This document shows positions 15,270-53,910 of a DNA stretch of 64,000 bases, in pieces. Under the pieces are notes generated by a model. The model saw nothing but the letters and a program-made list of their open reading frames with translations. It was not told the DNA's origin and ran no database searches. A program made the translations under genes and the position numbers. The stretch is from a virus. Location of the stretch: IMG/VR virus record IMGVR_UViG_3300032516_000005. One strand, 5' to 3'. The stretch's first letter is position 1, and each line of letters begins with the position of its first letter.

Positions 15270-15758
15270 CTACTCGTCGTCGTAGTCGTCGCCAAACATA
15301 CGATCGTTGTTGCACCGTTTCGATCCGCTCATGGCACTACGAACGGCGCCGATCACCGCGAGCGTCGCGACCACCGCGATCGAGATCGTCGAAATGGTCT
15401 GTAGGATGGTCTGTGTCCGCTCCAGCTTGAGTGATTCTGCATCCGTAGCTGCGTCGCCAAGCCCGTTGCGTGACGGCGCCGGCTGCATCGTCGGGTAGCT
15501 GCCGCCATCGACGGGGTTGCCGTAGTACCACCCCTGACGTACGGGAATGTACTGCAGGTCAACCGATGCCTCGAAGTCGTTCGGGACGTCGCCGAGCCCT
15601 GCGTACCCACGCGTGATTGCGCCGGGATCGAACGGCTGCCAGCGACCGTACGGGATGATGGTGTTGTTGCCGGCTGGCGCGTGGTCGCCCATCCCATTGA
15701 TGCTGCGTTGCATCTCGTTGACGGCGATGCCGAGCCCGTTGCGCGATGCGACCAACAT
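15270..15758 (-). CDS. Putative virion membrane protein with repeated G[LM]G motifs
   Basis: NGLG, NGMGD, AGLGD, NGLGD, MFGD; one C-terminal TM. Confidence 0.7.
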   Translation of the reverse strand: MLVASRNGLGIAVNEMQRSINGMGDHAPAGNNTIIPYGRWQPFDPGAITRGYAGLGDVPNDFEASVDLQYIPVRQGWYYGNPVDGGSYPTMQPAPSRNGLGDAATDAESLKLERTQTILQTISTISIAVVATLAVIGAVRSAMSGSKRCNNDRMFGDDYDDE

Positions 15759-16225
15759 TAGCGGTGCCGCCGGTTGCGAACGACGTTGTAGACGCCAATG
15801 CCGATACCCGCGACGACAGTAGTAACCGTCAGCGCGCCCATCGCTGTCTGCCAGAACGCCATGCGCTTGAGTGCCGCTGCTTGCGCCTGCTGCTGTGCGA
15901 GGATCAATTGCAGCGTCGCGTCCGCGTCACCGAAGCCGCCGCCACCGACCATTGACGCATCGTAGTGGTAACCCTCAGGGCTCTGGTAGCCACCTGGGTG
16001 TTGTGTGAGTCGAACGGTCGCCGTCCCCGGCAGACCATACGGACGGCCGGTCAGCCACGCGTCAGATTCGTTGACGATGCCGAGGCCACTGGCCTTGAGA
16101 TCTTCGAGCGATGCGTAGGGCATATAAAACCTCCGCTGCGCAGCGCCGAGCTGCATGGTCGTGGTTGATGGCGCGACACCCACGCGGGCCGCGAACTGGA
16201 CGGAGTCTTGGGTTGCCATCAGCAT
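15758..16225 (-). CDS. Putative virion membrane protein
   Basis: Start MLMATQ; QLGA, SGLG, GFGD; C-terminal TM plus RNRRHR. Confidence 0.7.
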   Translation of the reverse strand: MLMATQDSVQFAARVGVAPSTTTMQLGAAQRRFYMPYASLEDLKASGLGIVNESDAWLTGRPYGLPGTATVRLTQHPGGYQSPEGYHYDASMVGGGGFGDADATLQLILAQQQAQAAALKRMAFWQTAMGALTVTTVVAGIGIGVYNVVRNRRHR

Positions 16226-16245
16226 TGCGCCCAAACTCTATCACG

Positions 16246-16261
16246 GATCGCGTGCGCGATC
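16246..16261. promoter_or_regulatory. Operator-like palindrome GATCGCGTGCGCGATC
   Basis: Next to a minus-strand TAGAGT -10 box. Confidence 0.8.
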
Positions 16262-16263
16262 AG

Positions 16264-50910: not shown

Positions 50911-50912
50911 GC

Positions 50913-51845
50913 ATGGCGACGGCGTTCTGCTATCCGTCGTTCCATGCGACGTTCGCGCCGCTCGTCGGCGGCGCCGCCGATCAGCGCTTTCTGTTTTCGG
51001 GTTGCAGCGTCAATTTCGAAGGCAACATCCCGTGCGCGCCCGAGGCCATGCGTGCAAGCGCCGAGAGGCAGCTCCAAACGTCAGGTTTCTGGCCGGTCGG
51101 CAAGCCGCTCGATCTCGCGACGTACACGCTCGCGCGCAACATCCAGAGCGAGGTCGGTGGCGGAACGGTCGAGGAACGTGTCGCTATCGGTGAATCGACG
51201 GTCAACCAAGGCAAGCTGCGAGGCCTGTCGCCACGCGATGCTGCACTAGCTGTTGCATTGTTTCGTCAACCGAGTCGGTTGTACGGCGCGATCAATACGC
51301 CCAGTGGGGGCAGTCTCGGCACGGGCCGGTTTACGTCGACAAACGCCGACCCGAACATCTTGACGACGCTCCTAGCTGATCTCGTCATCACAGGCCAGAG
51401 CGGTAACTTCAGCCAAGGTGCCGTCGATCAGGACGGTCTCGAATTCCGATCGTCGTTCCCAATTCCGATGAATCGAATCTTGAGCGAAGCGCAGAGCGGC
51501 AAGTTCTGGGTCGGTCCCTTGCCTGGTGTCGACCATTGGCACACGACGCTGTTCAATAAGCTCAATGTCAGTGCAGCGTCGCCGCAAGGAATTTTGCTGA
51601 TCGAACGCGCACGACAGTTCTTTGGCGCGCCCATCTACACAGGCAACCGCGTCGCGGCGAGCATGCGTCCAGTCTGGGCGGCAAACTTACCGATCTGCAG
51701 CAGCGTTTCGAGCACCGCTCCGTCGGGCCGTAGCGACTTCGCGAACTTCCTGATCGGTATGGGCGCCGTTGGCGGGCTGATTGGCCTCGGTTGGCTGTCA
51801 CTGCGCGTCGCGAAGAATCTGGCACAAGGACCCGCCGGTCGATGA
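50913..51845 (+). CDS. SleB/Hydrolase_2-like cell-wall hydrolase with C-terminal anchor
   Basis: TLARNIQSEVGG...ERVAIG...VN (catalytic Glu pattern); shared TM anchor. Confidence 0.6.
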   Translation: MATAFCYPSFHATFAPLVGGAADQRFLFSGCSVNFEGNIPCAPEAMRASAERQLQTSGFWPVGKPLDLATYTLARNIQSEVGGGTVEERVAIGESTVNQGKLRGLSPRDAALAVALFRQPSRLYGAINTPSGGSLGTGRFTSTNADPNILTTLLADLVITGQSGNFSQGAVDQDGLEFRSSFPIPMNRILSEAQSGKFWVGPLPGVDHWHTTLFNKLNVSAASPQGILLIERARQFFGAPIYTGNRVAASMRPVWAANLPICSSVSSTAPSGRSDFANFLIGMGAVGGLIGLGWLSLRVAKNLAQGPAGR

Positions 51846-52615
51846 ACGTTGTCGGTGAACGCATCCTGATCGTCGGCGACAGTCTGTCGCATCCAGGCCC
51901 CGACAAAGGCCCGTCGATCGTCGACATCACGACGCCGATCGGTGTGTCATCGGCGCCAGGCGAGCTGATCGCACGGCAGCTGCTTGCAGCCGGCGCACAG
52001 GCTGCGCGTGTCAACGCCAAGGTCGGACGCTCGGCGCGAAGCTTCCTATCGACCGAGAGCACGTTGCTCGCGCGCGATCAGATCGAGTTCCGGCCGACCA
52101 AAGTCATCGTCTGGCTCGGCACCAACGACATCGACGGCGGCCTCACGCCCGCAGCACTCGCCTCGACAGCCAACGCCATGGCGCAGATCCGCGATGCGTA
52201 TCGAGCGATGGGCGCTGAGGTCTTTGCGCTCGGCCCGCCAACGTACCCGAACGCGCGCTACAACAACGCCGCGCCGATCATGTTCGACGTGATCCAGGAC
52301 GTCTTCGGTGTTGATCATACATTCGACATCCGGCCATTCACGCCAGGCGCTGCCCGAACAGGTGACGGCATTCACTTCACGGCGGCGGGTGCAGCTGCCG
52401 TTGCACCAGGCATCGCACAAATGCTCGCGGCGCCGACAACCACCGTCAGCGAACAGTCGGGTATGTCCAACGGTGTGAAGTTCGTACTTGGTTTCGTAGC
52501 CGTCGCAGGTCTTGCAGGGCTCGGTTGGTTCACGCTGGGTATCGCAAAGCGCGCCGCGCAACGGCCAGGGCTGGCCGCTCGTGCACGACGACGCCAAGCG
52601 AATGCCTACACCTGA
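51842..52615 (+). CDS. SGNH/GDSL hydrolase with C-terminal anchor
   Basis: ILIVGDSLS, AKVG, WLGTND, DGIHF blocks. Confidence 0.88.
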   Translation: MNVVGERILIVGDSLSHPGPDKGPSIVDITTPIGVSSAPGELIARQLLAAGAQAARVNAKVGRSARSFLSTESTLLARDQIEFRPTKVIVWLGTNDIDGGLTPAALASTANAMAQIRDAYRAMGAEVFALGPPTYPNARYNNAAPIMFDVIQDVFGVDHTFDIRPFTPGAARTGDGIHFTAAGAAAVAPGIAQMLAAPTTTVSEQSGMSNGVKFVLGFVAVAGLAGLGWFTLGIAKRAAQRPGLAARARRRQANAYT

Positions 52616-53910
52616 TGCGCATCGTCACCTTCAATATTTTCCATGACACGCCACCACTAGCGCAGCGCTTGGCCACCGCAGCAACGTGGCTGCGGCAACT
52701 CGCACCTGATGTCGTGCTGTTACAGGAGGTGCAGCCAACGACGACTGCGCACGACCTAGCACGGCAAAGTGGATTTCCACATGTCGAGATCGGCAAGCGC
52801 CGTTCGGATGCAGATGAAGGTCTCGCGATTCTTTCACGTACGCCACTGTCGGACGTGCGTGTCGTGCTGTTACCAGAAGCTGAAGATCCAACTTGGGATC
52901 GCGTTCTTTTGTCGGCAACGACCGTAATCGGCGACCAGCCAATCTATGTCCACACGACGCACTTGAACTTCGCACGTACGGCCAGTGCAGTGCGTATGCG
53001 GCAAGTCCAGGCGATTTTGAATGTCATCGGTGTAGGTGGCGCACACGTCATTGGCGGCGACTTCAACGCCGAACCACAATCGCCCGAGATCGCGCTACTT
53101 CGGGCTGCGGGCTTCGTGGATGTTGGGCCAGCTGCGCCTACGTGGGCGAGCAAAAATCCCAGCGTACCGCCGCAGGCCGCACGACTGAATCTGAACCCCG
53201 ATCGAAAAATTGATTATCTGTTCGTGCGCGGTGTCGAAGCACGACCGGGCAACATCGTCCTCGATACGCCCATCAATAACGTTTGGCCTTCCGATCACTT
53301 TGCAATTCTCGCTGACGTTACGGCGCCTGCGCCCAAGAAGACCGCCGGCAAGAACGTGCTGCGCGGTATCGGTGCTGTTGCAGGTTTCGTGGGTCTCAGC
53401 TGGCTTGCATTGCACGTCGCTAAGCGTGCCGCACAGGGTTCTCGCGCGTTCGGTACGTCGAGCAAATCTGTTCCGCGGCTAGACCTCGACGATGAACATT
53501 GGCGCGAACAAGACGCGCTCTACAGCAGCACCGTCGAGATGTTGATAGATGCAGAAGGTTACGATCGCGACGAAGCACGTGACTCTGCAGAACTGGTTGT
53601 ACGCGACGAATTTCCAAATGACATTGGGTGGCAGCCTCGTCGAGTACGGCGTGCAACCGCTGAACGTCTGTGGACGCCGCCTTCACGAAAACGGCGACGA
53701 AACAAAGGCCTCGGTGCGACCGACGTCAAGCTCATCAAGCGCGTCGCGCAGCTGATCTCGTACGATGTCTCGAAGCAGGACATCCGTGAACAGCTCATTG
53801 CTGAAGGTTATGACGACGATGACATCTTCCAGGCGCACCAGGCCGCGAAGGTCTACCTGCGGCGCCGTGAGTTGCCTGACTCGAATTTCGGCGCGTTGGT
53901 CGACGATTAA
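52615..53910 (+). CDS. EEP (endonuclease/exonuclease/phosphatase) enzyme with anchor and C-terminal extension
   Basis: MRIVTFNI, DVVLLQEV, THL, GDFNA, IDYLF, SDH; TM; AFG, GLG and NFG motifs in the tail. Confidence 0.9.
   Translation: MRIVTFNIFHDTPPLAQRLATAATWLRQLAPDVVLLQEVQPTTTAHDLARQSGFPHVEIGKRRSDADEGLAILSRTPLSDVRVVLLPEAEDPTWDRVLLSATTVIGDQPIYVHTTHLNFARTASAVRMRQVQAILNVIGVGGAHVIGGDFNAEPQSPEIALLRAAGFVDVGPAAPTWASKNPSVPPQAARLNLNPDRKIDYLFVRGVEARPGNIVLDTPINNVWPSDHFAILADVTAPAPKKTAGKNVLRGIGAVAGFVGLSWLALHVAKRAAQGSRAFGTSSKSVPRLDLDDEHWREQDALYSSTVEMLIDAEGYDRDEARDSAELVVRDEFPNDIGWQPRRVRRATAERLWTPPSRKRRRNKGLGATDVKLIKRVAQLISYDVSKQDIREQLIAEGYDDDDIFQAHQAAKVYLRRRELPDSNFGALVDD

Follow-up and report, generated by a model that had tools for sequence, protein, structure and literature searches.

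A candidate virion maturation system in viral DNA: a recurrent G-[FL]-G motif in late proteins and a transglutaminase-fold enzyme

Site-specific proteolysis during virion maturation is known from tailed phages, herpesviruses, adenoviruses, poxviruses and African swine fever virus (ASFV). The adenovirus protease AVP cuts at sites of the form (M/I/L)XGX-G and (M/I/L)XGG-X, and the pVIc tail reads IVGL-GVQSLKRRRCF (the last hyphen in each marks the cut). The prohead proteases gp21 of phage T4, which recognises capsid-targeting sequences, and gp175 of phage phiKZ remove short N-terminal leaders that are shared among head proteins at a simple consensus; they also degrade the scaffold at many sites and process themselves. 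We know of no such maturation system in tailless membrane-containing bacterial viruses of the PRD1/PM2 type, and a literature search found neither maturation proteolysis in these viruses nor a maturation protease with a transglutaminase fold. Here we analysed 64,000 nucleotides of the IMG/VR virus record IMGVR_UViG_3300032516_000005 (the window). An original prediction for positions 15270-53910 had proposed that a (G)-[FLM]-G motif marks domain boundaries in putative structural proteins, and that a membrane-anchored transglutaminase-like protease trims these proteins. We find that a strict form of the motif is enriched in the late proteins of the window and of its relatives, where it may mark cleavage sites, and that a conserved enzyme gene of the transglutaminase fold accompanies it.

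Motif enrichment in the window and its relatives

We compared 45 late proteins (15270-44300 and 50200-53000) with 29 early proteins, each set against composition-preserving shuffles. An apparent open reading frame with GLGI repeats (49728-50069) was rejected as a coding feature, as it is a perfect 12-bp tandem repeat, and was left out of all motif counts. In the late proteins we count 38 copies of the strict motif G[FLM]G, compared to 12.8 ± 3.5 in whole-protein shuffles (z 7.2), and 16 of the longer form G[FL]G[ADE], compared to 2.0 expected (z 10). Local composition is not the cause of the enrichment, since shuffling in 20-residue blocks yields only 13.5 sites (z 6.9; 0 of 500 shuffles as high). 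Paralogy is not the cause either, since 22 G[FL]G sites compared to 6.9 expected (z 5.8) stay after removing paralogues and the internally repetitive protein at 26496. The early proteins contain one site where 4.3 are expected; thus, the enrichment is found in the late set only, and the scarcity of the motif in early genes agrees with the original prediction. The definition of the motif has to be narrowed. The loose form [FLM]G, which includes the predicted xLG and xFG, is not significantly enriched in the late proteins (145 compared to 131), and Met is not enriched as the middle residue of G-x-G (3 compared to 3.4), whereas Phe (3.7x) and Leu (1.5x) exceed expectation. The control patterns G[IVA]G and G[STNQ]G are flat, and Gly is also over-represented in the middle position (21 compared to 12.7). 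The DNA words that encode the motif occur 38 times in frame, compared to 0 and 4 times in the other two sense frames, and comprise many different codons. This points to selection on the protein, and we rejected a cause at the DNA level. Outside transmembrane (TM) helices, we count 33 strict sites in 17 late proteins, so that the earlier figure of about 25 proteins was too high. We are highly confident that the motif is a specifically recognised, selected element.

The relatives of the window are 16 IMG/VR contigs of 85-221 kb. In most of these related loci G[FLM]G is enriched two- to threefold, and G[IVA]G is enriched in few. In a complete relative of 85.6 kb, the sites cluster in the module of the capsid-protein candidate and the enzyme, and modules of replication type are almost without sites. 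The window consensus is [N/S/G/A]-G-[F/L]-G-[A/D/E/I], located in flexible linkers, and the consensus of the distant relatives is L-x-G-L-G-[I/L/A]-P. In this distant clade, Leu prevails in the middle and Ile, Leu or Ala at position +1; Leu stands at -2 in 59 of 152 sites (4.6x), Asn at -1 is enriched 4.2x (4-7x overall) and Pro at +2 is found 23 times compared to 9.3 expected. Right after the last Gly (+1), Pro occurs 3 times compared to about 17 expected across all three sets, which matches the pattern of most endopeptidase sites. Alignments of orthologues show that sites are kept with swaps between Phe and Leu, forming conserved islands amid poorly conserved linkers rich in insertions and deletions, and that new motif copies arise within insertions.

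The motif-bearing late proteins, together with the capsid-protein candidate, are the following:

15270-15758, minus strand: C-terminally anchored protein with four sites in its translation (NGLGI, NGMGD, AGLGD, NGLGD)
15758-16234, minus strand: C-terminally anchored protein with sites SGLGI and GGFGD in its translation, kept in 3-4 of 4 orthologues
16383-21789, minus strand: family A operon with four paralogues (16383-17837, 17838-18929, 19010-20995, 20992-21789)
24018-24302, minus strand: small protein with an ML leader, the relaxed site QPFGA, a C-terminal TM helix and a RARRRSS tail
26194-26445, plus strand: small basic Cys-containing protein, in which LG[DAR] closes a variable N-terminal leader and is kept in distant relatives
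26496-27389, plus strand: Gly-rich membrane protein with five sites, directly upstream of the capsid-protein candidate
27565-28314, plus strand: best-conserved late protein and candidate major capsid protein, without the motif
38155-38466, plus strand: very basic protein of 103 aa whose N-terminus carries MLGYTLG and whose C-terminus carries ALG-RRRRTRG
39225-39656, plus strand: protein with two TM helices and MGLGD upstream of them
40435-43927, plus strand: family B operon (40450-41166, 41170-41922, 41926-42501, 42545-43477, 43481-43927)
50233-50910, plus strand: membrane hairpin protein carrying PGFGG close to its N-terminus and, C-terminally, AQGF...AGFG-RAKLR

In the protein at 15270-15758, the Gly residues of AGLG-DVP and NGLG-DAA are invariant even in an orthologue of 33% identity, and there are few other invariant columns. 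The true start of the gene at 15758-16234 is probably the ML at 16222. The family A paralogues each have an ML or MI start and a Pro-rich spacer, and close with a C-terminal TM helix plus RRRR tail. They carry nine strict sites in total, of which CGGLGAD is kept in 2/2 orthologues and GGFGE/GLG in 3/3. Family B proteins have ML leaders, the sites NGFGA, GGFGS, HGFGA, NGFGA, GGFGN and SGFGA, and basic tails behind their C-terminal TM helices (AFG-RRRHH in the fourth member). In the distant-relative counterpart of the 26496 protein, the motif forms an 11-residue repeat, LNGLG(I/M)P, and relatives of the 50233 protein combine a C-terminal TM-AQGFG-KKK with LLG or LGLG leaders at the N-terminus. 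In the 50233 and 26194 families and in the 15270 and 15758 proteins, [FL]G stands between a variable N-terminal leader and a conserved body. The leaders and tails listed in the original prediction are all present in the translations; the NGFGA of the 40450 protein is located 57 residues in and thus does not end a short leader.

More generally, an Arg/Lys tail behind a TM helix close to the C-terminus is found in about 15 proteins within 15-53 kb. Most of these begin with Met-Leu or Met-Ile, and no signal peptides were seen in the late membrane-anchored proteins. A hydrophobic second residue (ML/MM/MI/MF) goes together with an N-terminal motif (odds ratio 3.0, p 4e-4, with orthologues that are non-independent). 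Near the N-terminal end, three family A and B proteins (17838-18929, 41170-41922 and 41926-42501) have weak, sub-threshold matches to PG_binding_1/3 (E 0.025-0.1). These PG_binding-like domains contain paired Cys residues, which hints at an extracytoplasmic or virion-surface location.

The enzyme encoded at 21891-22694

Two features are relevant here:

21891-22694, plus strand: membrane-anchored transglutaminase-fold Cys-His-Asp enzyme of 267 aa
21804-21819, no strand assigned: palindrome GATCGCGTGCGCGATC, a late-regulon box in the intergenic region that the enzyme gene shares with the divergent family A operon

The enzyme consists of an N-terminal leader with GALG, a Gly/Ala-rich TM helix, RRR, GALG-R and a catalytic domain (83-267), and its start at 21891 agrees with the orthologues. 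C193 (GEDCDG in the window, GDCDD in orthologues), H226 (WAHIY) and D245 (ALD; LDTTLPG) are invariant in 16 orthologues and 120 further homologues (42-99% identity). Thus, the predicted Cys-His-Asp triad and the TM helix bracketed by two GALG motifs are both confirmed, and the palindrome bears out the promoter region that the enzyme gene was said to share with the family A operon. This box, GATCGC-N4-GCGATC, has 24 matches in the window (with at most one mismatch) compared to 0.8 expected, and its copies stand ahead of most operons that encode motif proteins. Further residues are invariant or nearly so in the 136 sequences, namely the pair C137/C144 (CPxRDxxCE) and the acidic residues D162, E174, D177, D192 and D194. 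The extra Cys pair and the acidic cluster could serve as a switch that works through a disulphide or a metal (Ca2+), comparable to those of LapG and of true transglutaminases.

The AlphaFold2 (AF2) model of the catalytic domain has a predicted local distance difference test score (pLDDT) of about 88-97, with a dip to about 49 over roughly residues 161-180. Its best VIA fold matches are two putative cysteine proteases, 3kd4 (Z 12.4; root-mean-square deviation (rmsd) 3.0 Å, 142 aligned) and 3isr (Z 11.4). These are followed by FXIII, TG2, TG3 and PNGase (Z about 10) and by the phage enzymes PeiP and PeiW (9.7 and 8.9); Foldseek E-values for the model range from 8e-5 to 6e-4. At the sequence level, a PHROGs search with the enzyme returned nothing and its profile found no match among PDB chains; PF01841 (Transglut_core) is precomputed for most of the 120 listed homologues. 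The product has a genuine transglutaminase fold with the Cys-His-Asp order intact, and is very probably catalytically active.

The enzyme family comprises at least 671 homologues of about 230 aa. The gene is present in every related contig examined, is located at most 10 kb from the capsid-protein candidate at every locus, and is single-copy in the records of all five relatives searched, three of which are rated 100% complete. Furthermore, the enzyme carries the motif itself: among the 97 homologues with a detectable TM helix, 94 have, at 4-10 residues beyond the helix, an [FLM]G with a basic stretch behind it.

Proposed cleavage and its alternatives

We propose that the motif is a cleavage site, and we estimate the probability of this at about 0.5. 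The cut would fall after the second Gly, so that Gly is P1, the hydrophobic Phe or Leu is P2, and P1' is other than Pro. As the cutter we favour the late-expressed, N-terminally membrane-anchored enzyme at 21891-22694, an assignment that we make more tentatively than that of cleavage as such. The enzyme would take off short ML-type N-terminal leaders, free ectodomains from their C-terminal anchors of TM helix plus Arg residues, clip basic tails and fragment the repeat protein encoded upstream of the capsid-protein gene. At the juxtamembrane [G]LG-R site, which is conserved, it would also cut itself and set its catalytic domain free. Cleavage by this enzyme is suggested because the would-be P2 is hydrophobic, in agreement with the usual choice of a bulky hydrophobic P2 residue by papain-like enzymes, and because of the Pro pattern around the last Gly. 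The leader-then-body layout in several families and the enzyme's own conserved site argue in the same direction, as does the finding that no other lineage-wide protease was detected; self-processing is usual among maturation proteases. Scaffolds of tailed phages are degraded at maturation, and cleavage is further suggested because the multi-site protein upstream of the capsid-protein gene sits where such scaffolds sit. The predicted trimming by a transglutaminase-fold protease is thus substantiated as regards a real, selected and lineage-wide motif and an intact late-regulon enzyme that carries it, whereas protease activity, recognition of the motif and cutting are what we infer from these.

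Several observations weigh against cleavage by the enzyme. Although the motif had been predicted to lie at domain boundaries, its placement at N-termini and TM boundaries is just 1.3-1.6x over random. In the window and 12 relatives, 40 sites are located in the first 25 residues compared to 30.7 at random placement in the same proteins, 32 within 30 residues before a TM helix compared to 22.8, and 12 within 15 residues after it compared to 7.5. In the window alone, the values are not significant (6 compared to 4.0 in the first 25 residues, 4 compared to 3.9 in the 30 residues before a TM helix). Several individual sites are conserved in homologues; conservation downstream of sites is not systematically higher than upstream (Wilcoxon p 0.62). 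Distant orthologues of the 38155 protein have neither of its extensions, so that the motif there is limited to the clade of the window. Judged by basic clusters, sites fall on both sides of TM helices, and some would be out of reach of one membrane-tethered catalytic domain once the proteins are inserted. Multivalent binding would explain the tandem sites at 11-residue spacing and the doublets (such as GFGFG) at least as well as cutting. Regarding the enzyme, its PF01841 score is 19.5 bits, under the cut-off of 23 bits, and the chemistry is not fixed by the fold since this fold also includes cross-linkers, PNGase and the isopeptidases PeiP and PeiW. A complex prediction with the enzyme domain, the capsid-protein candidate and a 39-residue motif peptide scored 0.00, which we take as evidence neither way.

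The same repeats and doublets and the same two-sided placement would also be consistent with a docking or assembly peptide, in line with the docking or sorting peptide that the original prediction named as an alternative. Such a peptide would recruit membrane proteins and the enzyme to a common hub, which could be the capsid lattice, a scaffold or a membrane-shaping factor. The enzyme would then have another job, most plausibly that of a membrane-anchored cell-wall endo- or isopeptidase at entry or lysis. We consider this the main rival explanation, though less probable than cleavage by the enzyme. Copies are freely gained and lost in disordered arms, as with other interaction motifs; the enzyme resembles the phage wall isopeptidases PeiP and PeiW; other late enzymes, a GDSL esterase and an endonuclease/exonuclease/phosphatase-family (EEP) nuclease/phosphatase, are TM-anchored too; and families A and B show the weak PG_binding-like matches. 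However, no hub was identified, and depletion of Pro at +1 together with an excess at +2 is seen more typically around scissile bonds. The top structural matches of the enzyme are annotated as putative proteases and not as wall hydrolases, and its own tightly placed motif would require a second explanation. A separate capsid-docking device also seems to be in place, since the N-terminal arm of the capsid-protein candidate recurs in the 15758 protein. A hydrophobic 'sticker' would need no dedicated reader at all: G-[FL]-G in Gly-rich linkers would favour self-association or contact with membrane surfaces. The location of sites in stretches of low complexity, where G, N, Y, P and S abound, and the excess of Gly in the middle position fit this explanation, which we nevertheless regard as very improbable. 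The consensus spans 5-7 positions (an excess of Leu at -2, of Asn at -1 and of Pro at +2, and a deficit of Pro at +1), the remaining aliphatic residues show no enrichment between two Gly, and individual sites are invariant at 33% identity.

If the motif is cut, the protease might be a different one, either a host enzyme or, in the large-genome clade of the window, a C39 peptidase with a membrane anchor whose gene lies in another part of the genome. Enzymes of the C39 family cleave short leaders behind small motifs that contain Gly, and in the staphylococcal phage 80alpha the host protease Prp reportedly removes short ML-type leaders. A C39 domain (PF03412) is indeed found in the two closest large relatives, with 54 and 61 bits (G002:166679-167065 and G001:31381-31764, in genomes of 196 and 221 kb). 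However, it is absent from the relatives of 86, 121 and 138 kb, which keep the motif and the transglutaminase-fold gene, and the 86- and 138-kb records are complete. C39 is therefore an accessory of the large-genome clade and not a core gene. C39 sites also require Gly at P2, which the present motif does not have, and no other protease family was detected in the searches run; in particular, no C5 (PF00770) or Ulp1-like C48 (PF02902) domain was found in five related records. We thus judge a different protease improbable. Least probable of all, in our view, is a virus-encoded sortase analogue that would cut after G-[FL]-G and transfer the new C-terminal Gly to an amine, for instance in a lipid head group, in the cell wall or on a Lys of the capsid lattice. 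If this were true, the layout of motif, spacer, TM helix and Arg residues would be a true sorting signal, and a new lineage of large bacterial viruses with a membrane would connect membrane and capsid covalently through dozens of proteins.

The virus lineage and comparison with known systems

The window has 62% G+C, and gene calling with a codon model yielded 101 genes. No match in DNA similarity was found to 50,697 deposited phage records, and scans of the late proteins against Pfam, PHROGs and NCBIfam returned nothing for most of them. Near-identical DNA is present in several sediment metagenomes, and the sequencing runs listed as containing it include no RNA data set. Direct terminal repeats occur in two of the five relatives that were checked for completeness. 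The best explanation is that the window is part of an undescribed lineage of large (85-221 kb), tailless-looking bacterial viruses; a literature search found no account of this lineage. The capsid-protein candidate has 55-93% identity across the 16 contigs. Its AF2 model is unusable (pLDDT 45), and a weak Atlas lead (score 0.77) points to PM2 P2 and PRD1 P3. Its N-terminus, VGVAPSTTTL (27577-27606, plus strand), resembles VGVAPSTTTM in the 15758 protein (16154-16183, minus strand). In the 85.6-kb relative both are altered together, to VGVAPGTYTF and VGVSPGTYTM (10001-10711, plus strand, and 2268-2573, minus strand, of its locus). This suggests that the 15758 protein may be an anchor that mimics the N-terminal arm of the capsid protein to plug into the lattice.

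Further observations concern the surroundings of the late genes. A von Willebrand A-domain protein of 785 aa (30767-33124) matches phrog_2426 (E 5e-166) and has 33-35% identity to hypothetical proteins of large Erwinia, Klebsiella and Salmonella myophages, which is the sole strong tie of this genome to cultured phages. Three enzymes are located at or near the edges of the late block (14778-15242, 51842-52615 and 52615-53910): a dual-specificity phosphatase (Pfam E 2.7e-10), a GDSL esterase/lipase (E 1.4e-9) and an EEP-family protein (E 1.2e-23). The latter two each have a TM helix, the GDSL enzyme together with a basic tail, and all three are possibly virion enzymes that act on a membrane or envelope. 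Three neighbouring small paralogues with two TM helices (44254-45213) each end in (K/P)PEC, a C-terminal Cys motif that is distinct from the Gly motif. The tandem repeat that separates the early and late blocks (49766-49903) consists of 11.5 perfect copies of the 12-bp unit CCTGGGAATCGG and could be an origin or a binding array. The designation of 50913-51845 as a SleB-like wall hydrolase was a guess without Pfam support and was dropped. Regarding the host, one enzyme homologue is located on a 3-kb contig of a metagenome-assembled genome (MAG) of Tepidisphaeraceae, which is a weak hint. A relative of the capsid-protein candidate with 74% identity and adjoining viral genes is found in a 4.7-Mb Gemmatimonadota MAG chromosome (CP070815.1, 3705222-3725920), in which no transglutaminase-fold gene was found. 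This region directly adjoins bacterial-looking metabolic genes and may be a chimera of the assembly, mark an integration site or be what is left of a prophage; it is a weak host hint as well.

When comparing the locus to known systems, we find partial resemblances to several of them. The layout of motif, spacer, TM helix and Arg-rich tail resembles the signals of sortases, exosortases and archaeosortases. In contrast to these, LPXTG, PEP and PGF are absent, G-[FL]-G is located 3-60 residues from the helix and also at N-termini, and there is no signal peptide; in LPXTG-type anchor models the TM-plus-Arg part alone aligns (profile positions about 10-34), and all but one hit are sub-threshold. 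PeiW and PeiP of methanogen phages are likewise virus-encoded Cys-His-Asp enzymes of the transglutaminase fold, whereas they cleave cell-wall isopeptide bonds, have wall-binding repeats and no membrane anchor, and have no link to a protein motif. LapG and the BTLCP family belong to the same structural superfamily (Z 9.2 and 8.9; rmsd 3.6-4.1 Å over 132-140 residues). The likeness is one of fold only, as PF06035 has no match in the Pfam scan at E ≤0.01. LapG also cuts at a short motif of small residues and thereby releases an anchored surface protein, but it is a soluble periplasmic enzyme of cells that has one substrate and cuts at TAAG. Prp, which processes L27 and the capsid and scaffold proteins of phage 80alpha, is a cysteine protease that removes a short Met-Leu leader from several structural proteins at a hydrophobic-small junction. 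It differs in being a host enzyme of another fold whose site is cut between F-F and A.

In its proposed maturation logic, with removal of leaders, multi-site cutting of a scaffold and self-processing, the system would resemble T4 gp21 and phiKZ gp175. These are serine proteases with a herpesvirus-assemblin fold that cut after Glu, whereas here we find a Cys-His-Asp transglutaminase fold, Gly at the putative P1 and mostly membrane proteins as targets. The parallel drawn by the original prediction, with AVP, vaccinia I7 and ASFV pS273R, would hold in that a single cysteine protease of the virion serves many structural precursors and trims them at short sites with Gly. Furthermore, the L-x-G-L-G of the distant clade fits the letters of the AVP site (M/I/L)XGX-G, and a basic C-terminal tail follows L-G in both. 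The parallel does not extend to the enzyme: the adenovirus, vaccinia and ASFV proteases have another fold, that of AVP being the Ulp1-like fold of clan CE, to which the present enzyme does not belong since its fold differs. The five related records contain no C5 or C48 match. The present enzyme is moreover membrane-anchored, the host would be a bacterium, and the conserved hydrophobic residue occupies a position where AVP accepts any residue. Even as a docking signal, the motif would be a handle on the particle and membrane proteins of a lineage with almost no database matches. If cleavage is confirmed, the locus would represent a form of site-specific virion maturation in which enzyme fold, motif and virus lineage are all new. 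A new protease fold would then join virus maturation, and a short sequence code would mark dozens of otherwise unannotatable proteins across hundreds of related public sequences. An adenovirus-like maturation logic would have arisen independently in a bacterial virus.

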